Shown: piece after piece, positions 7,630-56,221 of the stretch
Layout of the letters: each line of letters starts with the position of its first letter
Numbering within the stretch: the stretch's first letter is position 1
Assembly: GCA_035502035.1 (NCBI GenBank)
Contig: DATJUZ010000059.1
Span: 6,650-70,649, forward strand
Length of the DNA stretch: 64,000 nt
Source: Thermoplasmata archaeon
GTDB taxonomy: Archaea > Thermoplasmatota > Thermoplasmata > Lutacidiplasmatales > UBA184
Direction: 5' to 3'
The notes under the pieces: generated by a model
The model's database searches: none
The model's input: only the letters and a program-made list of their open reading frames with translations
What the model was told of the DNA's origin: nothing
Program-made: the position numbers and the translations under genes

Positions 7630-8154
7630 CTAGCGGGCCGTCGCGCTCGCCCGGAAGCGGTAGTAGTATCGGCCGTCCGGGGCGGCGTACGTCTCGACCG
7701 TCACCGGCTCTCCGACCGAAAGCTCGGTCCAGGACCGGCCGACGATGCGCCCGAACAGCCGCAGGGGGGCCCCGTCGAGGTCGACGAGGCCGACGGCGAA
7801 CGGCACCTCTCCTTCCATGCCGAGCGGCGCTCCGCCGAGGACGGCGCTGAACGCGTAGATGCGGCCGGTCCCCGGCAGGTCGACCCAGGCGAGCTCGGCG
7901 GTGTGGCAGCGCGGGCAGACGGTTCGGGGCGGCCAGGTGACCGTGCCGTCGCGCGTGCAGCGGGTCGTCGAGAGGCGGCCGTCGCGCAGCCGGTCGAAGA
8001 ACCGGTGGAGCCGCGTGTCGCGCTCGCTTTCCCGAGGCAGGAAGTCGAGCAGGAACGGCACCCCACCCTCGGGGGGCGGGGACGGGGGAGGCGGCGCCGG
8101 GGGAGCGGCGGACGCTAGGCGGGCGCGGGAGCGGGCCGGGCGCGCCTCGCTCAC
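7630..8154 (-). CDS. DUF35 OB-fold / zinc-ribbon protein (thiolase-associated scaffold family)
   Basis: C-terminal part of track ORF 7630..9075. Contains the ...RCTRDGTVTWPPRTVCPRCH ribbon-like segment followed by an OB-fold-like region (RIYAFSAV...VPFAVGLVDLDGAPLRLFGRIV). Start chosen at the GTG that forms a GTGA overlap with the thiolase stop (8151-8154). Pro/Ala-rich N-terminus. Confidence 0.7.
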   Translation of the reverse strand: MSEARPARSRARLASAAPPAPPPPSPPPEGGVPFLLDFLPRESERDTRLHRFFDRLRDGRLSTTRCTRDGTVTWPPRTVCPRCHTAELAWVDLPGTGRIYAFSAVLGGAPLGMEGEVPFAVGLVDLDGAPLRLFGRIVGRSWTELSVGEPVTVETYAAPDGRYYYRFRASATAR

Positions 8155-9332
8155 GACGCCTCCCCGCGCTCGTAGACCATCACGGAGTGGACGTTGGCGC
8201 TGCCGGAGAGGTTGTGGACAAGCGCCCATCCCGGGTCGCTGACCTGGCGGGCCGCCGGGACCTTCCCGGCGAACTGCTCGTAGACCTCGACCGCCTGGGC
8301 GATGCCGGTCGCGCCGAGCGGATGGCCGCAGCCGAGCAGCCCCCCGCGCAGGTTGACCGGCAGCCGGCCCCCGAGGTCGGAGTTCCCGTCGAGCGCCCAG
8401 CGCCCCCCCTCGCCCGCCGGACAGAGGCCGAGCGCCTCGTACTCGACGATCTCGGAGATCGTGAAGCAGTCGTGGAGCTCGGCGAGGTCGAGCTGGCCGA
8501 CCTCGACCTTCGCCGACCGGAGCGCCTCGCGCACGGCGTGCTTCATGCCGACCCAGTCGGTGAGCGAGCCCGCGTTCGCGAGGTTGTGGAACTCCGAGTA
8601 CTGGCCCGTCCCGCGGAGCCATGCGACCGGTCCCCGGAAGGTCCCTAGGTGGTCCTCGGAGGCGAGCACGACCGCGGCGGCGCCGTCGGTCATCGACGAG
8701 CAGTCGCCGAGCCGCAACGGGGGAGCGACGAGCGGAAGCCCGAGGAGCTTCTCGCGCGAGAACGTCTTCCGGTAGAACTGCGCATGCGGGTTCGTGTTCG
8801 CCAGGCGGTGGTTCTTCTCCGAGACGGCCGCGAGCTGCTCGGCGGTCGTCCCGTGCTCGAGCATGTGGCGCTGGGCGACCATCGCGAAGAACGGGGGCGC
8901 GGTCGCGCCGGCCGGCCCGTCCCAGGGCCGGTCCATGACGCAGGCCATCGCGGTGTTCGCCTCGGCCATCGACGGGAGGTTCATCTTCTCGACGCCCACC
9001 GCGACCGCGACGTCGGAGAGCCCGGCGGCGATCGCGGCGTAGGCGGAGCGGATCGCCGACTGGCCCGAGGCGCACGCGAGCTCCGTGCGTTGCAGGATGC
9101 GGTGCGGCCGCAGCCCCATCTGCTCGGCGGCGAGCGGCGCGACGTGCGACTGGAAGGCGAACCGCTCGGGCATCGCCGCCCCGACGAACAGCGAGTCGAC
9201 GTCCTCGGCGCGCAGCCCCGGCACCGCGCCGAAGAGCGCCATCCCGACCTCCTGGGCGAGCTCCGGCCAGGTGCTCGGCAGGACCCCGAAGTCGGTCGTC
9301 GCTCCGCCGACGACGGCGACCCGGCGGGTCAT
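8151..9332 (-). CDS. Thiolase-family acetyl-CoA acetyltransferase-like protein (SCP-x type)
   Basis: 393 aa starting MTRRVAVVGGATTDFG. Catalytic motifs ELACASG, HDCF and GCGHPLGATG. The ATG shares one nt with the stop of the upstream dehydrogenase (TGATG at 9330-9334). Confidence 0.85.
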   Translation of the reverse strand: MTRRVAVVGGATTDFGVLPSTWPELAQEVGMALFGAVPGLRAEDVDSLFVGAAMPERFAFQSHVAPLAAEQMGLRPHRILQRTELACASGQSAIRSAYAAIAAGLSDVAVAVGVEKMNLPSMAEANTAMACVMDRPWDGPAGATAPPFFAMVAQRHMLEHGTTAEQLAAVSEKNHRLANTNPHAQFYRKTFSREKLLGLPLVAPPLRLGDCSSMTDGAAAVVLASEDHLGTFRGPVAWLRGTGQYSEFHNLANAGSLTDWVGMKHAVREALRSAKVEVGQLDLAELHDCFTISEIVEYEALGLCPAGEGGRWALDGNSDLGGRLPVNLRGGLLGCGHPLGATGIAQAVEVYEQFAGKVPAARQVSDPGWALVHNLSGSANVHSVMVYERGEAS

Positions 9333-32227: not shown

Positions 32228-32335
32228 CGGCGGCGGGAGCGGCGCTGGGACGATAAGCGTTCGCTCGGAGCGGCCGCTCAGGGCGTTCCCTCGACACGAA
32301 GCCGTTAATGCTCGGGGCTCCTCGCCGCCGACGGT

Positions 32336-32439
32336 GGGCCGGTAGATCAGCGGAAGATCGCGACCTTGGCAAGGTAGAGGTCGCGAGTTCAAAGGGCGCC
32401 CGGGACGGTTCCCGGGGCCGGAAGTTCTCGCCCGGTCCA
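32336..32439 (+). tRNA. tRNA-Ala (anticodon GGC) with a 32-nt intron in the T-loop (between positions 59 and 60)
   Basis: - Acceptor GGGCCGG/CCGGUCC with a G3:U70 pair and discriminator A73.
- U8, A14, G18G19 and A21 present. D-stem GAUC/GAUC.
- Anticodon loop UUGGCAA (anticodon 32368-32370).
- T-stem GCGAG/CUCGC. T-loop UUCAAA + U is restored by removing 32394-32425.
- One G:A mismatch in the anticodon stem.
- No encoded CCA. Confidence 0.75.
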
Positions 32440-32504
32440 CTCCCGCCGGTCCCTCGGGACCTTCGGCACCTGTCGAAACCGGCGAACGACACGAAGGTCA
32501 GCGA

Positions 32505-32510
32505 TTTATA
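32505..32510 (+). promoter_or_regulatory. TATA box for a leaderless XRE-regulator/mevalonate operon transcript
   Basis: TTTATA lies 24 nt upstream of the GTG start at 32534. Confidence 0.45.
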
Positions 32511-32533
32511 GCGGGGTCGGCTCGTTCGGTCCC

Positions 32534-33208
32534 GTGCAACCGGAGATCCGCGAGAAGATCGCCGGCGAGGTCGTCCTCTCGCCGCATCCGGGCCGGACCC
32601 TGCGCAAGTGGCGCGAGGACTTCCACGTCTCGCAGCGCGACCTCGCGAAGCAGCTCGCGACCGTCCCGAGCGTCATCAGCGACTACGAGAGCGAGCGCCG
32701 CAGCAGCCCTGGCGCCGGCTTCATTCGCCGCTACGTCGACGGGCTCCTCGCCCTCGACCAGCGCCACGGAGGCCATCTCGGAGCCCCGGGGGCGCCCGAG
32801 CACTCGGACGGCATTCTCGGCCTGCGCGAATTCGCGGTCGCGATGCCCCTGAAGAGCTTCGCCGACCGCCTCGAGGCGCGCGCGGTGAGCCGCGTCGACC
32901 TCCACCGCGACCTCCACGGGTTCACCGTCGTCGACGCCCCGCGCGCGATCCTGTCGATGGACGCGAGCCGGTTCGTCGAGGTCTACGGCTGGACGACCCA
33001 GCGGGCGATCGTCTTCGCGAACGTCAAGTACGGGCGCTCCCCGATGGTCGCCATCCGCGCGCACCCGTTGAAGCCCGCAGCGGTCGTCTTCGCCAACCCG
33101 GGCCGCATCGACGCGCTCGCCATCCGCCTCTCCGAGGTGGAGAACATCCCGCTCCTCACCACGTCGCTCGCCGCTCCGGCGGTGTTGGAGCGTCTCGAGG
33201 AGCTGTAG
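32534..33208 (+). CDS. XRE-family helix-turn-helix transcriptional regulator with uncharacterised C-terminal domain
   Basis: 224 aa. HTH segment [34 protein letters not shown]. The opposite-strand ORF 32498..33229 is Arg/Asp-rich and is rejected. Confidence 0.7.
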
Positions 33209-33227
33209 AGGAGGAAGGACGACGTCC

Positions 33228-34280
33228 ATGGACGCAGGGATCGTGAGCTACGGGGCCTACGTGCCGCGCTACCGCATCACGCCGGGGGAGATCGGTCGCG
33301 TCTGGGGCTCGGACGGCGAGAGCGTGGGCCAGGGGCTGAACGTCGAGCGCAAGAGCGTGCCGGCCCCGGACGAGGACACGATCACGATCTCGACCGAGGC
33401 GCTGCGCACCGCGCTCGCCCGGGGCGGGATCGACCCGCAGCAGATCGGAGCGGTCTACGTCGGATCGGAGTCCCACCCGTACGCCGTCAAGCCGACCGCG
33501 ACCGTCGTCGCCCAGGCGGTCGGGGCGACGCCCCACCTGACCGCCGCCGACTTCGAGTTCGCCTGCAAGGCCGGCACCGCGGCGATCCAGACCTGCCTCG
33601 GCCTCGTCGGCGCGGGGATGGTCCGCTACGGGGTCGCGATCGGCACCGACACCTCGCAGGGGGCTCCCGGCGACGCGCTCGAGTACTCCGCGAGCGCCGG
33701 CGGCGCGGCGTTCGTGATCGGGCGCGAGCGGGTGATCTGCCGGGTCCACCGGACCCTCTCCTACACGACGGACACTCCGGACTTCTGGCGCCGCGAGGGC
33801 CAGCGGTACCCGAGCCACAGCGGCCGGTTCACGGGCGAGCCGGCATACTTCCGGCACGTCACCGAGTGCGCGCGCTCCCTGTTCGAGGCCGCCGGCACCA
33901 GCCCGAAGGACTACGTCCACGTCGTCTTCCACCAGCCGAACGGCAAGTTCCCCCAGCGCGTCGGCAAGCAGCTCGGCTTCACGGACGCCCAGATGCGCTG
34001 GGGGCTCGTGACGCCGTACATCGGCAACACCTACTCCGGGGCGGCGCTCATCGGCCTCGCGAACGTCCTCGACCACGCCGGTCCGAACGAGCGCGTGCTC
34101 GTCGTCGGCTACGGCTCGGGGGCCGGCTCGGACGCCTTCGACCTCGAGACGACCGACGAGCTCCCCCGCTTCGAACGCCAGCACGGGCGGCCCGTCCAGT
34201 ACTATCTCGAGAACGGCGTCGAGATCCCCTACGCCGTCTACGCGAAGTTCCGCGGCAAGATCCGCATGGCGGAGGGCTAG
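33228..34280 (+). CDS. Hydroxymethylglutaryl-CoA synthase (archaeal type)
   Basis: 350 aa. Starts [17 protein letters not shown]. Contains [21 protein letters not shown] (catalytic Cys) and [10 protein letters not shown] motifs. Confidence 0.9.
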
Positions 34281-34283
34281 CCG

Positions 34284-35453
34284 ATGCGGGAGGTCGCCGT
34301 CCTCGGCGTCGGCCAGACGAAGTTCGGCGAGCTCTGGGACCGCTCGTTCCGCGAGATCGGCATCGAAGCCGGCCTCCAGGCGCTGGTCGACGCGAAGCTC
34401 TCGAGCGCCGACCTGGGGGCGCTGTTCCTCGGGAACATGGCGAGCGGGACGCTGATCGACCAGGAGCACATCGCCCCCCTCATCGCCGACTACGCGGGGC
34501 TCGCGGGGCGCCACCTGCCCGCGATGCGCGTCGAGGGAGGCGGGGCGTCCGGCGCCCTCGCGCTCCACCAGGGCTACCTCGCGGTCGCGAGCGGCCGCTA
34601 CGACTACGTCGTCGTCGGGGGCGCCGAAAAGCTCACGGATGTGCCGGACACGGCGGCGACGCAGGTCACCGCGTCCACCGCCGACCACGAGTGGGAGGTC
34701 GTCTTCGGCGCGACGCTCCCGGCGCTCTGGGGGCTGGTCGCGCGTCGACACATGCATCTTTACGGGACGACGCGCGAGCAGCTCGCGCGCGTGTCGGTCC
34801 ACGCGCACGAGATGGGCGCGAAGAACCCGAACGCGCACTACCGCAACCGGCTGACCGTCGAGCAGGTCGTCGGCGCGCCGCCGATCGCCGAGCCGCTCGG
34901 GGTCCTCGACTGCGCGCCGTTCTCGGACGGTGCCGCCGCGGTCGTCCTCGGCCCGCTCGAGCAGGCCCGGCGCCATACCGACACCCCGGTCCGCCTCGCG
35001 GCGAGCGTCGTCGCCTGCGACACGATGGCGCTCCAGCACCGTGCCGACGTCACGAGCGTCGGCGCCACCGTCGAGGCGGCCCGGCAGGCGTTCGCCCAGG
35101 CGCGCCGGGCGCCGGCCGACGTCTCGGTCGCCGAGATCCACGACGCCTACTCGATCTGCCCGCTCGTCGGCCTCGAGGACCTTGGGTTCGTCGAGCGCGG
35201 CCAGGCCGGCCCGGAGTTCGCGAGCGGACGGTTCGGCGTCGGCGGGCGTCCGACGGTCAACCCCTCCGGCGGCACGAAGGCCCAGGGACGTCCGTTCGGG
35301 GCGGTCGGCGTCGCGCAGGTCGTCGAGCTCGTCCGCCAGCTGCGCGGAGAGGCGAAGGACCGGCAGGTCGCCGGCGCGTCGCTCGGGCTCGCCCACGACC
35401 TCGGGGGCACGGGGGCGACGAGCGTCGTCCACCTGCTGGAGCGGGCGAGCTGA
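34284..35453 (+). CDS. Acetoacetyl-CoA thiolase (archaeal mevalonate-pathway thiolase)
   Basis: 389 aa. Starts MREVAVLGVGQTKFGE. Contains GGGASGALA, EIHDAYSI and SGGTKAQGRPFGAVG motifs. Immediately follows the HMG-CoA synthase. Confidence 0.9.
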   Translation: MREVAVLGVGQTKFGELWDRSFREIGIEAGLQALVDAKLSSADLGALFLGNMASGTLIDQEHIAPLIADYAGLAGRHLPAMRVEGGGASGALALHQGYLAVASGRYDYVVVGGAEKLTDVPDTAATQVTASTADHEWEVVFGATLPALWGLVARRHMHLYGTTREQLARVSVHAHEMGAKNPNAHYRNRLTVEQVVGAPPIAEPLGVLDCAPFSDGAAAVVLGPLEQARRHTDTPVRLAASVVACDTMALQHRADVTSVGATVEAARQAFAQARRAPADVSVAEIHDAYSICPLVGLEDLGFVERGQAGPEFASGRFGVGGRPTVNPSGGTKAQGRPFGAVGVAQVVELVRQLRGEAKDRQVAGASLGLAHDLGGTGATSVVHLLERAS

Positions 35454-35462
35454 GGGGGGACG

Positions 35463-35951
35463 GTGTCGATCGCACGGTTCTGGCGCGAGACGCCGCGCCG
35501 CTACAACCTCGGAGGCTCGAAGTGCACCGTCTGCGGGACCGTCTACTTCCCGCCGCGGGGGGTCTGCCCGAAGTGCACCCACCACCGGCAGTCGATCGAG
35601 AAGATGGTGCCGTTCCAGCTCTCCGGCGCCGGGGAGGTCTTCTCCTACACCATCGTCCACGAGGCCGCCGAGGGGTTCGAGATGCAGGTCCCGTACGTCG
35701 TCGCGCTCGTCCGGACCGAGGAGGGGCCGATCCTCACCGGCCAGGTCGTCGACGTCGAGCCGGCGACGGTGCGGATCGGGCTCAAGGTCCGCGCGACGTT
35801 CCGCAAGCTGCGCGAGGAAGGCCGCGCCGGGGTCATCCACTACGGCTACAAGTTCGCCCCCGCGGAGGAGGTCGAGCCCGACCGCGCCCCGGGACCGCCG
35901 ATCGCGGCGGCCCGGGGGGCCCCGGCGACGCCCGACCGGGCGTCGACGTGA
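35463..35951 (+). CDS. DUF35 OB-fold / zinc-ribbon protein (HMGCS-thiolase complex scaffold)
   Basis: 162 aa. Complete four-Cys ribbon KCTVCGTVYFPPRGVCPKC, followed by an OB-fold-like region. Third gene of the canonical archaeal trio. Pro/Ala-rich C-terminal tail. Confidence 0.85.
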   Translation: MSIARFWRETPRRYNLGGSKCTVCGTVYFPPRGVCPKCTHHRQSIEKMVPFQLSGAGEVFSYTIVHEAAEGFEMQVPYVVALVRTEEGPILTGQVVDVEPATVRIGLKVRATFRKLREEGRAGVIHYGYKFAPAEEVEPDRAPGPPIAAARGAPATPDRAST

Positions 35952-36739
35952 GCGGCCCGGACCCCGCCGCGTCGGGCCGGTCGGCCCCGGACGAGCCGCC
36001 GGCCGACGAGGAGTACGCGCGCACCTACGCGGCCGGCTACGAGGAGGGGGTCCGCACCGCCCTGCGGGAGCTGCTCGCCCACGCCTCCCGTGGCCGGACG
36101 AACCAGGAGCTCCGGGCGCTGATCCTCAGCCGGCTCGCCCGGCTCCGCGAGGAGGTCGACCTGAAGCGGCGGAGCCTGCTGGCGCCTCCCCGGCCCCGTC
36201 CGTTCGGCGAGCTCGTCCGACCGGCGCTCGGCCTGCCGAGCGGCGGCCCGCCGTCGGCGGCGGTCCGCCCGGTGCCCCCGGGGGGGAGCGTCCTCGTCCG
36301 CGAGGCGCGGCCGGAGCACGCGATCGAGCTGCTGCTCGCCTCGCGGGCCGGTTTCCCGCGGACCGTCCTCGTCTCGCTCCGTCCCCCGGCGCTCCCCGCC
36401 GGCGGGGAGACGATCGTCGTCCCGCTGCGCGGCTCCGGCGAGCTCGCGGGGGAGCGCCTCGAGCTCGGCCAGGTCAGCGGCCGCCTGCGCGAGCCGATCG
36501 GGCTCCCCGGCGGCGCGCTCGTCTACGTCGACGCGCTCGAGTTCTTCGTCGCGGAGTCGAGCCCGGACCTCGCGATGCGGTTCGCGCGGTGGCTGGTCAC
36601 GGAGGTCCAGGAGCACGCCGGCGGCCTCATCGTCTCCTACGACCCGCGGGCGCTCGTCCTGACGGACGTCGGGCGGCTCGAGCGCCTGTTCGGCGAGGTC
36701 GTCAACCGCTCCCCCGCGGCGCCGCTGTCGCCGCCGTAG
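35948..36739 (+). CDS. DUF835-like protein (uncharacterised)
   Basis: 263 aa from a GTG forming a GTGA overlap with the DUF35 stop. The C-terminal half (GGALVYVDALEFFVAESSPDLAMRFARWLVTEVQEHAGGLIVSYDPRALVLTDVGRLERLF) resembles the DUF835 pattern. Assignment is from memory. Confidence 0.55.
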   Translation: MSGPDPAASGRSAPDEPPADEEYARTYAAGYEEGVRTALRELLAHASRGRTNQELRALILSRLARLREEVDLKRRSLLAPPRPRPFGELVRPALGLPSGGPPSAAVRPVPPGGSVLVREARPEHAIELLLASRAGFPRTVLVSLRPPALPAGGETIVVPLRGSGELAGERLELGQVSGRLREPIGLPGGALVYVDALEFFVAESSPDLAMRFARWLVTEVQEHAGGLIVSYDPRALVLTDVGRLERLFGEVVNRSPAAPLSPP

Positions 36740-36766
36740 CGGGCGAGGGTCGGGCTCGAGGGGCGC

Positions 36767-37972
36767 GTGCGGATCGCCTACTTCTCCGACTCCTACCCGC
36801 CGATGCGCGACGGCGTCGCGCACGTCGCGAGCGACCTCGCCCGCACGGTCGCCGCGCAGGGCCACGAGGTCCGCGTGTACGCCCCCCGGCCCGGTCCGAG
36901 CGACCGGGTCCCGCGCGAGGAGGTGAGCGACGGCGTGACCGTCCGCCGCCTCGCGTCGCTGCCGGTCCCGCTCTACGGCCAGTACCGCTGGCCGGTGTTC
37001 CCGTTCCGCGTCGTCCGCGAGGCCGCCCGGGACGCCGAGGTCGTCCACCTCCACACGCCGGGGCTGCTCGGCACGAGCGGCTTCCTCGCCGCACGCCACG
37101 CGCGCCGGCCGCTGGTCGGCACGTTCCACACGAACCTGGACGCGATGCGCGCGAGCGTCCCGCGCAAGCTGCTCGTCCCGCTGTTCTTCCGCGTCGCCTG
37201 GTGGTACAACCTCGGGACGTACTACCGCTGCACCGTCACGACCGCCCCGAGCGAGGCGGCCCGCGCGACGCTCCTGGCGAGCTCGAGCAAGCCGTTCCGC
37301 CGCCCGGTGGAGGTCGTGCCGAACGGGATCGATCTGGACCGCTTCCGTCCGGGGGCGGCGGTGCCGGACTGGCGCTCGCGCTGCGGGCTCGGCGGCGGTC
37401 CGCTCGTCACGTTCCTCGGCCGGCTCACGGTCGACAAGGGGGTGCTACGGTTCCTGGACGGGTTCGCGCGCGCGGCCGAGGAGACCGACGTCGTCGGGAT
37501 CGTCGGCGGCTCCGGCCCCGAGGAGGCCGCGGTGCGCGCGCGGATCGCCTCCGACCCGCGCCTCGCCGCCCGCCTGCGCTACGTCGGGCCGGTCGCCGAG
37601 GAGGAGAAGGCGGCGCTCCTCGGCCAGTCGGACCTGTTCGTCCTCCCGTCGACGAGCGACACGTCGAGCGTCGCCCTCCTCGAGGCGATGGCGTGCGGCG
37701 CCGCGGTCGTCGCCCCGAGCGAGGGGGGCGCCTCCGAGGTCGTGCAGGACGGCCGGACCGGCCGGGTCGGGAACGCCCGCTCGGCCGACGACCTCGGGCG
37801 GCTGCTGGTCGAGCTCGCGGGGGCGCCGGCCGAACGCGCGCGCCTCGGCCGCGCCGCCGCCGCGTGGGTCCGCGAGAACCGCTCCCTGGAGGCGATGGCT
37901 CGGCGCTTTATCTCCCTCTACCGCTCGGTGCTCGAGGAGCAGGGTCAGCGTGGCCACGGTCTCGTCGGTTGA
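36767..37972 (+). CDS. Glycosyltransferase family 4 (GT-B, Glycos_transf_1)
   Basis: 401 aa. Starts MRIAYFSDSYPPMRDGVAHV. C-terminal FVLPSTSDTSSVALLEAMACGAAVVA (E-x7-E-like) motif. Confidence 0.8.
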   Translation: MRIAYFSDSYPPMRDGVAHVASDLARTVAAQGHEVRVYAPRPGPSDRVPREEVSDGVTVRRLASLPVPLYGQYRWPVFPFRVVREAARDAEVVHLHTPGLLGTSGFLAARHARRPLVGTFHTNLDAMRASVPRKLLVPLFFRVAWWYNLGTYYRCTVTTAPSEAARATLLASSSKPFRRPVEVVPNGIDLDRFRPGAAVPDWRSRCGLGGGPLVTFLGRLTVDKGVLRFLDGFARAAEETDVVGIVGGSGPEEAAVRARIASDPRLAARLRYVGPVAEEEKAALLGQSDLFVLPSTSDTSSVALLEAMACGAAVVAPSEGGASEVVQDGRTGRVGNARSADDLGRLLVELAGAPAERARLGRAAAAWVRENRSLEAMARRFISLYRSVLEEQGQRGHGLVG

Positions 37973-38999
37973 GCTCCAGGGCGTCGCCCGTCGCCTCGCG
38001 GCCGAGCGGTTCGACGAGCACGCCGAGCGCGGGCTCGCGCGGGCCTACGAGGAGTTCGTCGGCCGCCGCCGGCGCGCCGTCGGCCCGATCTCGCTGACGG
38101 TCGACGGCCGACCGTTCCCGAACCTCTACGCCGTCCTGGCCGACCCGACCGCGAAGTTCGCCACCGGCGAGCTCCGCTTCGAGGGTCGGTCGGTCGCGCC
38201 GTCCGACTGGGAGTTCCTGCCGACGTTCGAGCGGGTCGTCTTCCATGACGACGGCTCCGCCGACCTCGTCCCGGCCGACGGCTCGGCCCCCCGGCGGGCG
38301 ATCGCCCGCGTGCTCCTGCGGGAGCACTATCTCGTCCGCTCCCGCTCCGAGGACGCCCCGGAAGGGCCGACGGCGGCGCCGAAGGTCCCGAGCCTGGTCG
38401 GGACGCTCCAGCAGGGGACCGCGATCTGTCGGGCCGCGGGGGTCCTGCCGTTCGCGGTCGCGCTCCTGCTCTACCTCGCCGAGGAGCGGGCGCGGCTCGA
38501 GATCGACATCGTCCACGGCGAGCTCCTCCGCGACCCGAGGGCCGGGCGCCTCGCCGCGGCGCGGCGGGTCCCCCGCCCCTCCCGGCTCGCCTGGGGGCTC
38601 GACCGGAAGCTCGGGCGCGGCCACCTGTCGCTGCTCGCGGCGCGGTCGCTCGAGGTGCTCGTCGAGTCGAACGGGCTGACGAGCGTCGACCTCGCCCACG
38701 TCTTCGGGGGGGTCCGCGAGCTGGTCGACTCGGCGCTCCAGGCGCTCGTCCAACAGCGCCTCGCGACGTTCGACGGCCGGACCGGCATCTACCGCGCCCG
38801 GCTCGAGGCGTTCTCCCCGGCCGCCGAGGAGACCGGGAGACCGATCGCGCCGGTCCGGCCGGAGCTCCGCTCGAGCGTGCAGGAGCTGCTCGCCGCCGCG
38901 GACGCGAAGGCGCTCTGCCCCCTGTGCGGGATCCGCGTCCCGACCGGTCCGAGCTACCTGCTCTGCGACGAGTGCGCGAGCAGCGTCGGTCTCCCGTAG
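37950..38999 (+). CDS. Hypothetical protein with wHTH-like segment and C-terminal zinc ribbon
   Basis: 349 aa in a GC3-rich frame with no internal Met (GTG start, uncertain). Contains LTSVDLAHVFGGVRELVDSALQALVQQRLATFDGRTGIYRA and the terminal CPLCGIRVPTGPSYLLCDEC. No family recognised. Confidence 0.5.
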   Translation: MATVSSVELQGVARRLAAERFDEHAERGLARAYEEFVGRRRRAVGPISLTVDGRPFPNLYAVLADPTAKFATGELRFEGRSVAPSDWEFLPTFERVVFHDDGSADLVPADGSAPRRAIARVLLREHYLVRSRSEDAPEGPTAAPKVPSLVGTLQQGTAICRAAGVLPFAVALLLYLAEERARLEIDIVHGELLRDPRAGRLAAARRVPRPSRLAWGLDRKLGRGHLSLLAARSLEVLVESNGLTSVDLAHVFGGVRELVDSALQALVQQRLATFDGRTGIYRARLEAFSPAAEETGRPIAPVRPELRSSVQELLAAADAKALCPLCGIRVPTGPSYLLCDECASSVGLP

Positions 39000-39007
39000 G
39001 GTGCGGG

Positions 39008-39114
39008 CGGGCCTGTCGGGAGTTCCCGTCCCGGGGCGCGCGTCCCCGGGACCTTTGAACCCGAGATTGCTGGCTTAGAAGGCCAGTACTTTGTCCAGGC
39101 TAAGCTACAGGCCC
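39008..39114 (-). tRNA. tRNA-Arg (anticodon UCU) with a 32-nt intron in the T-loop (between positions 59 and 60)
   Basis: Read on the minus strand:
- Acceptor GGGCCUG/CAGGCCC with discriminator G. U8 and A9 present.
- D-arm GCUU-AGCCUGGACA-AAGU.
- Anticodon arm CUGGC-CUUCUAA-GCCAG (anticodon 39079-39077).
- T-stem UCGGG/CCCGA. T-loop UUCAAA + U is restored by removing 39053-39022.
- No encoded CCA. Confidence 0.75.
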
Positions 39115-39233
39115 GCGGCCCTCGGAGGGAGGACGAACCGTAAGAACCTGCCGGGGGAGCGGCAGGGGCGTCGGCCGCCGGCGGGGCGGGCCGGGTCTCC
39201 TCGCGCGCGTGCAACGACGCCGGGTCCGTCGGG

Positions 39234-55557: not shown

Positions 55558-55992
55558 ATGCCGTCGCGCACGCGGAAGTTCCGGGGGCTTCGGACGCACG
55601 GTCGGGGGATCAAGGCCGGCCGCGGCGCCGGCAAGCAGGGCGGCCGCGGGAACGCCGGGCTCCACAAGTACAAGTTCAAGTCGATGCTGATCTACGCGCC
55701 GGACCACTTCGGCCGCCACGGCTTCGTGCGGCCGGACGCGGTCACGGAGCGTCCGACCTCGCTCAACGTCGGGGAGCTCGAGGCGTTCGTCCCGACCCTC
55801 GAGGCGGCCGGCGCCGTGGCGCGCGACGGCGAGACGTTCGTCGCCGACCTCACGAAGGCCGGGGTCGACCGGCTCCTCGGCGGCGGCGCCCCCGAGCGGC
55901 CGTGGAAGGTGAAGGTCGGCTACGCCTCGCGGCACGCCCGCGAGAAGGTCGAGGTGCTCGCCCCCGACGGCGCGAAGGCGCCCGCGGCCTAA
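55558..55992 (+). CDS. rpl15: 50S ribosomal protein L15 (uL15)
   Basis: 144 aa. Contains RKFRGLRTHGRGIKAGRGAGKQGGRGNAG. Confidence 0.95.
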   Translation: MPSRTRKFRGLRTHGRGIKAGRGAGKQGGRGNAGLHKYKFKSMLIYAPDHFGRHGFVRPDAVTERPTSLNVGELEAFVPTLEAAGAVARDGETFVADLTKAGVDRLLGGGAPERPWKVKVGYASRHAREKVEVLAPDGAKAPAA

Positions 55993-56005
55993 CGCCCCCG
56001 CCGGC

Positions 56006-56221
56006 CTACAGCTTCGTCAGGATATCGTCGATCTCCCGCGCCGCCGCCTCGAGCTCCTTGGCGGCGCGGCGCGCGGCGGCCTGGGCGGAGCGCTTCGGGT
56101 CCTTCGCGATCCGCTCGGCGTGCTCCAGCACGCGGCGGGCGAGCTTCGCGCTCTCGCGCGCGAGCTCCTGCGCGGCCCGCTTCGCCTCTCCCAGCGCGGC
56201 GTCCAGGCTCTGCTCCTCCAT
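56006..56221 (-). CDS. Small coiled-coil protein (hypothetical)
   Basis: 71 aa, Ala/Glu/Arg/Lys-rich helical sequence. Downstream of and co-oriented with nikR. Convergent with rpl15 (13-nt gap). Confidence 0.45.
   Translation of the reverse strand: MEEQSLDAALGEAKRAAQELARESAKLARRVLEHAERIAKDPKRSAQAAARRAAKELEAAAREIDDILTKL

Follow-up and report, generated by a model that had tools for sequence, protein, structure and literature searches.

The stretch of DNA analysed here, referred to as the window, covers 64,000 nucleotides of contig DATJUZ010000059.1 from the Thermoplasmata archaeon assembly GCA_035502035.1. It carries two tRNA genes, and both are interrupted by an insert between positions 59 and 60 of the T-loop. 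The tRNA-Ala(GGC) gene (32336..32439, plus strand) was read as a 5' exon at 32336-32393, a 3' exon at 32426-32438 and a discriminator A73 at 32439, corresponding to a pre-tRNA of 103 nt plus the discriminator. Its insert (32394..32425) consists of a G, a 25-nt hairpin, the tetranucleotide GGAA and the dinucleotide GU; the hairpin comprises 10 bp with a single bulged G and the loop CGGT. The tRNA-Arg(UCU) gene (39008..39114, minus strand) has its 5' exon at 39114-39054, its 3' exon at 39021-39009 and its discriminator at 39008, with a pre-tRNA of 106 nt plus the discriminator. The corresponding insert (39022..39053, minus strand) is composed of a G, a 25-nt hairpin of 9 bp with a 7-nt loop, GGGA and AC. 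Sequence reading and in-silico splicing confirmed what a first-pass annotation had described from the letters alone: both inserts are exactly 32 nt long and follow A59, both are built as 1 + 25-nt hairpin + GGAA or GGGA + 2 nt, and each contains two CCCGGG palindromes. The inserts are very likely genuine protein-spliced archaeal tRNA introns and members of an old, inherited set of 59/60 introns.

Standard gene finders do not recover either gene in its unspliced form. The Rfam tRNA model matched only the first 59 positions of the Ala gene (a partial match of 23.6 bits at a lax threshold) and likewise the first 59 positions of the Arg gene, no further. ARAGORN distorted the Arg gene, missed the Ala gene and called a third gene, 'tRNA-Arg(tcg)', at 55918..56009 on the minus strand. 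The latter is a false positive, a GC-rich sequence of 92 nt that Rfam does not match and that has neither a T-loop nor a D-loop consensus nor any of the conserved tRNA nucleotides; the window thus holds two tRNA genes, as first annotated. After splicing in silico, the acceptor stem and the T-stem of both tRNAs are perfect, their T-loop reads UUCAAAU, and ARAGORN reported a clean tRNA-Ala(ggc) of 72 nt and a clean tRNA-Arg(tct) of 75 nt. In tRNA-Ala, the sequence reads TTCAAA|T across the exon junction, and G3:U70 is present. The Ala junction was confirmed by intronless orthologues of a sister family (L177-L179), which read straight through ...GCGAGTTCAAATCTCGCCCGGTCCA / ...GCGAGTTCAAATCTCGC..., and the Arg junction by the intronless orthologues L185-L187 (...TCGGGTTCAAATCCCGA; L185-L187 read TTCAAATCCCGA). 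A covariance model of T-arm plus intron, termed R2, scored the Ala locus with 59.1 bits and the Arg locus with 67 bits, the top score across all genomes searched. In thermodynamic folding, neither precursor lost its T-stem or its hairpin (z about -2 to -3). The two elements were retained in the minimum free energy fold of the Ala precursor, and the centroid fold of the Arg precursor contained the T-stem, a 3-bp central helix and the hairpin. Among the joints listed for DNA contigs of four wetland runs, none corresponds to a joined form lacking the intron.

The two genes had been taken as the sign of a genome-wide expansion of one T-loop intron type. A census was conducted with Rfam at a lax threshold and with a T-arm pattern scan followed by in-silico splicing, ARAGORN and inspection. 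The genome is a metagenome-assembled genome (MAG) of 1.66 Mb in 61 contigs, with a GC content of 72.8% and a completeness of 86.6%. The census bore out the expansion at 59/60: 37 tRNA genes were detected, and 11 of them carry an intron of 26-33 nt at this position, hence not the two of the window alone. The hosts are Ala-GGC, Arg-UCU, Arg-UCG, Asn, Asp, His, Glu-CUC, Gly-UCC, Ser-GCU, Ser-GGA and Ser-CGA. Two further genes (initiator Met and Arg-GCG) have a D-loop intron, four (Met, Tyr, Leu-UAA and Trp, the last with 87 nt) a canonical intron at 37/38, and 20 are intronless, so that 11 of the 13 non-canonical introns share a single position. All 11 genes with a 59/60 intron were missed or truncated by Rfam and ARAGORN, and after splicing all were accepted as cloverleaf tRNAs by ARAGORN as well as by a separate cloverleaf parser. 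The census is a lower bound, as the 86.6%-complete assembly lacks about ten of the expected tRNAs, Lys-UUU among them; a BLAST search of the genome with the Lys-UUU gene of a relative (G043) did not find it either. None of the 37 genes contains two introns, and no second gene was found for the anticodon of any intron-bearing tRNA. Searches for multiple introns, by two-segment removal, by scanning for anticodon loops with the 12 missing anticodons and with the cloverleaf parser, yielded only implausible solutions with three long introns. An ARAGORN intron search over the whole genome gave 90 calls, mostly false ones with introns of hundreds of bases, and was unusable. Unfiltered T-arm pattern scans produced thousands of chance matches and became usable after in-silico splicing and re-calling with ARAGORN.

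The census also bears on whether the inserts are removed at all. If they stayed in place, the genes would be disrupted pseudogenes, assembly artefacts or templates of tRNAs with an enlarged T-loop. This is extremely improbable, given that the interrupted genes are the sole ones found for 11 anticodons, that the inserts are conserved with compensatory changes in at least 34 genomes from different assembly groups, and that the Arg insert is also spanned by an independent contig from one wetland run. A T-loop of 39 nt is, moreover, incompatible with the T-loop/D-loop fold of a tRNA.

From the sequence we infer both the splicing event and the enzyme responsible for it. In the precursor, a motif of the bulge-helix-bulge (BHB) kind would form with the T-stem (49-53/61-65) as outer helix and a central helix in which U54-U55-C56(-R57) would pair with four intron bases of the type [C/G]G[A/G][A/G]. 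Two 3-nt bulges would hold the cut sites (A58-A59|N1 and N-N|U60), and the GC hairpin of the intron, 19-26 nt in length, would serve as inner helix. The sole tRNA splicing endonuclease (EndA) of the genome, predicted to be of the alpha'2 type, would cut in both bulges, and RtcB would join the exons, thereby restoring the T-loop UUCRAAU. All 11 introns at 59/60 fit the succession of helix, 3-nt bulge, 4-bp helix, 3-nt bulge and helix. In a covariance alignment of the 11 T-arms, 98.3% of the cells were paired and 12 of 17 pairs showed compensatory changes; none of 500 shuffles reached the observed value, and slid controls remained at 38-65%. The motif is maintained in relatives of the same family, in which 65 distinct introns (loci L018-L096) were compared. 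Positions 54, 55 and 56 were paired in 61 of these, G57 stood opposite C in 17 of 18 cases, and N60 was T (U) in all 65. Alpha4 and alpha'2 enzymes require a strict BHB motif (PMC3239211), and the motif predicted for the 59/60 introns of this genome is of the strict kind needed by alpha'2 enzymes.

The common build of the two introns had been read as evidence for one intron type, a view that did not hold. The same layout of 1 + hairpin + 4 + 2 is found in the genome's own canonical 37/38 introns, for instance 1 + 21 + GGAG + 2 in Met and 1 + 14 + GAAG + 2 in Leu-UAA. It is shared because the splicing enzyme requires a BHB motif at a fixed position; since this geometry dictates the layout, the shared architecture is no evidence of shared ancestry. 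Nor is the coincidence between the two neighbours unusual. With 11 of 37 genes interrupted at 59/60 and 4 of these 11 introns 32 nt long, the chance within the genome that two neighbouring genes share the position is about 8% and that they share the length about 11%. The agreement in position and length is therefore unremarkable within this genome; the remarkable part is the genome-wide and family-wide frequency of such introns.

The T-loop introns are a lasting property of the lineage. In the genus sampled first, each of the 24 other species has 7-14 copies according to R2; across five genera of the UBA184 family, the model detected 4-14 in every genome (34 of 34). All R2 matches of five genomes were fetched and spliced in silico. 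The same isoacceptors bear a 59/60 intron in all five genera, with Gln-CUG and Lys-UUU in addition, which indicates that the set is old and vertically inherited. It comprises about a dozen tRNAs: Ala-GGC, Arg-UCU, Arg-UCG, Asn, Asp, His, Glu-CUC, Gly-UCC, Gln-CUG and Ser-GCU/GGA/CGA. The near-uniform length is likewise lineage-wide, with a mode of 32-33 nt (28 of the 65 distinct introns have 32 nt and 16 have 33 nt). The hairpin sequences evolve fast, while the host tRNAs stay the same: mean identity was 0.69 among orthologues within the genus and 0.61 among orthologues between genera. Different tRNAs of one genome showed a mean of 0.592, unrelated pairs 0.587 and shuffled hairpins 0.554, and these identities gave no sign of recent copying among paralogous introns.

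The two introns of the window, which lie 6.7 kb apart, might nevertheless be recent duplicates of each other or of another intron in the genome. They are equal in length, they are the only T-loop introns of the genome with CCCGGG (0 of the 9 remaining ones contain it), and they have a 10-mer, CCCGGGACGG, in common. A recent duplication is still very unlikely. Introns in the same tRNA and at the same position (30-39 nt) occur in other genera, for Ala-GGC in four out of four and for Arg-UCU in two, and the Ala and Arg introns thus each predate the genus. Within the genus, the Arg-UCU orthologues retain a GGUCC.GGG stem and the Ala-GGC orthologues a stem of their own, and the identity of the Ala and Arg hairpins is ordinary.

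Inheritance of an old set leaves room for different origins of that set, and spliced 59/60 introns would be compatible with an event in the ancestor of the order, in which one intron of about 32 nt spread among tRNA genes by transposition or reverse splicing and its sequence has since decayed. This scenario is tenable, though we would sooner doubt it than adopt it. It would account for a length that is uniform over 12 isoacceptors and five genera, and for the 31-33 nt of the long-form 59/60 introns in AT-richer sister families (Ala-CGC, Arg-CCG and Lys-UUU in G027, Lys-UUU in G028). The 10-mer common to the two window introns has a P of about 0.03 against arm-shuffled hairpins, yet it fails correction for 55 pairs and lies in different hairpin arms of Ala and Arg. 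Their overall identity of 0.72 ranks only eighth among the 55 pairs (P = 0.31). Transposition, which had been proposed at first, finds no support in the alignments, as the similarity among paralogous introns does not exceed that of unrelated pairs (0.59 in either case, versus 0.69 for orthologues within the genus). Orthologues between genera are already at background, so that this test is powerless for an old event. The uniform length is the sole hint of a single ancestral origin for all 59/60 introns.

Outside the UBA184 family, R2 was applied to 150 genomes of the class and detected 1-4 copies in several other families and zero in others; these class-wide counts are lower bounds and do not map absence, since the model is biased towards GC hairpins of about 32 nt. 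It gave only 0-1 matches in sister families, although such introns number at least 3 in G027 and at least 10 in G028, and the notion that the sister families lack them was overturned by direct inspection of both genomes. G027 (sister family f2) possesses 59/60 introns in at least Ala-CGC, Arg-CCG and Lys-UUU (loci L190-L207); its Ala-GGC and Arg-UCU are intronless, and its Asn and His tRNAs bear canonical 37/38 introns, whereas in the UBA184 family the Asn and His introns are located at 59/60. In the AT-rich genome G028 (sister family f3), at least 10 tRNAs have 59/60 introns (loci L208-L227). Eight of these are mini-introns of 11-13 nt ending in ...TGAAAA|T, which have no inner hairpin and represent a bulge-helix-loop type; His and Lys-UUU have longer ones, of 19 and 33 nt. 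Some of the 59/60 genes of G028, several in number, are interrupted a second time, either in the D-loop or at 37/38. Three families of the order have a tRNA-Lys(UUU) gene in which a 59/60 intron is combined with one in the D-loop (L096 in G043, L195 in G027 and L222 in G028).

The retention of the set raises the question of a selective benefit. Interruption of the T-arm and the 3' region of the tRNA gene might deprive viruses or plasmids of an integration target, or the introns might gate the modification of the T-loop. The idea of a protective role is said to have been established for archaeal disrupted tRNA genes by Randau and Soll in 2008. The same dozen introns were kept over five genera despite the turnover of their sequences and are thus not quickly lost. 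We consider such selection unlikely, because slow loss under weak selection predicts the same pattern and because the intronless Ala-GGC and Arg-UCU of a sister family show that the introns are dispensable in kin.

The type of EndA, whose identification had been proposed as a check, could be assigned from sequence comparison. The genome contains a single gene (G000:C3, about 7872-8936) for a protein of 354 aa with the Pfam domain order N-C-N-C, and no second EndA gene was found in it. With two catalytic-type domains and two N-domains, the predicted enzyme is of the two-repeat alpha'2 type and not a three-unit epsilon2 enzyme. It can be aligned with the EndA of Archaeoglobus fulgidus (AFU) over its length. 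The stretch that matches AFU E174-L178, the site at which grafting of a Crenarchaea-specific loop broadened the specificity (PMC3241643), is equal in length (SRVGDRL vs SEKGDLV) and hence without an insertion of this loop. The catalytic repeat 187-354 is collinear with residues 4-171 of the Methanocaldococcus jannaschii EndA, the match to the ARMAN-2 EndA (4fz2) is limited to residues 253-337, and none of the described loop insertions L1-L3 (PMC5829648) is evident in the EndA alignments. The stretch RDTKSGRPVP (residues 238-246), absent in A. fulgidus, was considered as a specificity loop and rejected, as the repeat is collinear with M. jannaschii and the stretch is common to the EndA of the families f1, f2 and f3. 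These three families share the same collinear EndA (in G028 locus L228, alpha'2). A gene for RtcB is located at C24:10716-12020. Close relatives of the EndA are all encoded in Thermoplasmata MAGs of soil, peat and wetland, including UBA184, UBA61 and the AcS/SubAcS genomes from the paper introducing the name Lutacidiplasmatales. We infer a placement of the genome in the UBA184 family/genus within the Lutacidiplasmatales (formerly TMEG; GTDB UBA184), in agreement with the initial impression that it does not belong to the Thermoproteales.

Several observations weigh against the view that the window introns are spliced as proposed. The runs containing the window sequence are metagenomes of wetland and peat, with no RNA run among them. 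In the introns of the family, A57 stands opposite G in 39 of 47 cases and opposite U in just 3, and with A57 the central helix consists of three pairs and a mismatch instead of a perfect 4-bp helix. The two D-loop introns of the genome lack a strict motif; they have the 3' cut site within an internal loop and a non-contiguous outer helix. Finally, the alpha'2 EndA of A. fulgidus 'hardly cleaved' a BHB intron in the D-loop in vitro (PMC3241643), and the competence of an alpha'2 enzyme at sites other than the anticodon loop is therefore not to be assumed. The A-G apposition is conserved beside the 5' cut site and occurs likewise in the canonical Met and Leu-UAA introns.

Non-canonical BHB introns of Thermoproteales, other Crenarchaeota and Thaumarchaeota are covered by the tRNAscan-SE 2.0 census (PMC8450103) and have reportedly been the subject of work by Sugahara and Fujishima. 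The UBA184 genome resembles these lineages in its predicted protein-spliced introns outside the anticodon loop, with 59/60 among the positions used, in the many tRNA genes hit per genome and in the concealment of the introns from standard tRNA finders. The differences concern both the enzyme and the introns. Thermoproteales and their kin possess an (alpha-beta)2 EndA with the Crenarchaea-specific loop, which bears a conserved lysine; the UBA184 genome encodes a single putative alpha'2 EndA without the loop. Their motifs are often relaxed and their positions many, in contrast to the strict 59/60 motif and the prevalence of one position found here. A single gene may contain as many as three introns in those lineages, and their intron families show sequence similarity, whereas the UBA184 genome has one intron per gene and paralogues without such similarity. 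A 59/60 T-loop intron is also known from ARMAN-2 (Candidatus Micrarchaeum), whose pre-tRNA-Pro(GGG) forms a strict hBHBh' motif (PMC3239211). This DPANN archaeon, however, has few such introns, a relaxed motif (hBH) in pre-tRNA-Cys(GCA) and a three-unit epsilon2 EndA (alpha-p, alpha, beta) with a specific loop, unlike the 11 introns and the two-repeat chain of the Thermoplasmata genome. The canonical 37/38 introns of Archaeoglobus, Haloferax and Thermoplasma (PMC5829648, PMC7714728) share the alpha'2 enzyme and the strict 3-4-3 motif. To this kind belong the canonical introns in Met, Tyr, Leu-UAA and Trp of the UBA184 genome, which also have the layout of 1 + hairpin + 4 + 2. At 59/60, the outer helix is formed by the T-stem instead of the anticodon stem, and the conserved U54-R57 provides the exon strand for the central helix.

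BHB introns at 59/60 are thus already known from Thermoproteales with their relatives and from ARMAN-2, always together with a broad-specificity EndA. A published survey that highlights certain lineages for their disrupted tRNA genes does not count the alpha'2-encoding euryarchaea among them; the EndAs of the highlighted lineages are of the (alpha-beta)2, epsilon2 or loop-bearing kind. Current reviews associate the occurrence of non-canonical tRNA introns with (alpha-beta)2 and epsilon2 endonucleases and with the loops inserted in these enzymes. In the literature, no report of T-loop or other non-canonical tRNA introns in Thermoplasmata or Lutacidiplasmatales was found, and the study naming the Lutacidiplasmatales nowhere mentions introns. 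This agrees with the suggestion of the first-pass annotation that the lineage context may be new. The finding places a known kind of intron in a lineage and an enzyme context that specialists would not expect. The lineage is common in soil and peat, with dozens of species-level genomes, and about 30% of the tRNA genes carry a T-loop intron, which explains the incomplete tRNA sets reported by standard finders for MAGs of the UBA184 group. It also provides a natural test of whether the enzyme type limits the position of an intron, as opposed to the strictness of its motif. Twelve tRNAs in five genera with fast-evolving hairpins constitute a data set for the retention, shortening and loss of BHB introns, to which the sister families with mini-introns or none add contrast.

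A bolder generalization, which we put forward tentatively and would not yet favour, is that the whole order runs a large, T-loop-centred non-canonical intron repertoire with only a plain alpha'2 EndA devoid of the three described loops. The repertoire would possibly range from strict 59/60 introns in UBA184 and relaxed D-loop introns to the 11-13-nt bulge-helix-loop mini-introns of a sister family. If true, either this EndA would owe a broad specificity to a feature not yet described, or it would be wrong to tie the diversity of introns to the architecture or loops of EndA, as is now accepted.

The two D-loop introns mentioned above reside in the initiator tRNA-Met gene (G000:C10:10411-10512, minus strand, locus L013; about 28 nt) and in tRNA-Arg(GCG) (G000:C8, about 66960-67068, minus strand, locus L012; about 34 nt). 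Both have a good central helix, a 5' bulge and an inner hairpin and were graded as relaxed, HBh'-like. The 87-nt canonical intron of tRNA-Trp(CCA) (G000:C7:89771-89929, minus strand) contains ATGACGA and CTGA-like boxes and, by analogy with other euryarchaea, may encode a C/D box guide RNA. In tRNA-Gly(UCC) (G000:C52:5325-5424, minus strand, locus L009), position 33 is C in place of the near-universal U (loop CCTCCAA). This C33 is present in G000, G010 and G051 (L055, L075), and three other genera have the usual CTTCCAA (L061, L071, L093). Finally, most tRNA genes of the genome have, about 27-32 nt upstream, short A/T-rich boxes (TTAAT, TTATA, CTTAG, TTCTTA) that contrast with the GC content of 73% and are possible TATA boxes. 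In the window, the candidate archaeal TATA boxes at this distance are GTTAAT at 32304..32309 (plus strand) upstream of tRNA-Ala and TTCTTA at 39141..39146 (minus strand) upstream of tRNA-Arg.

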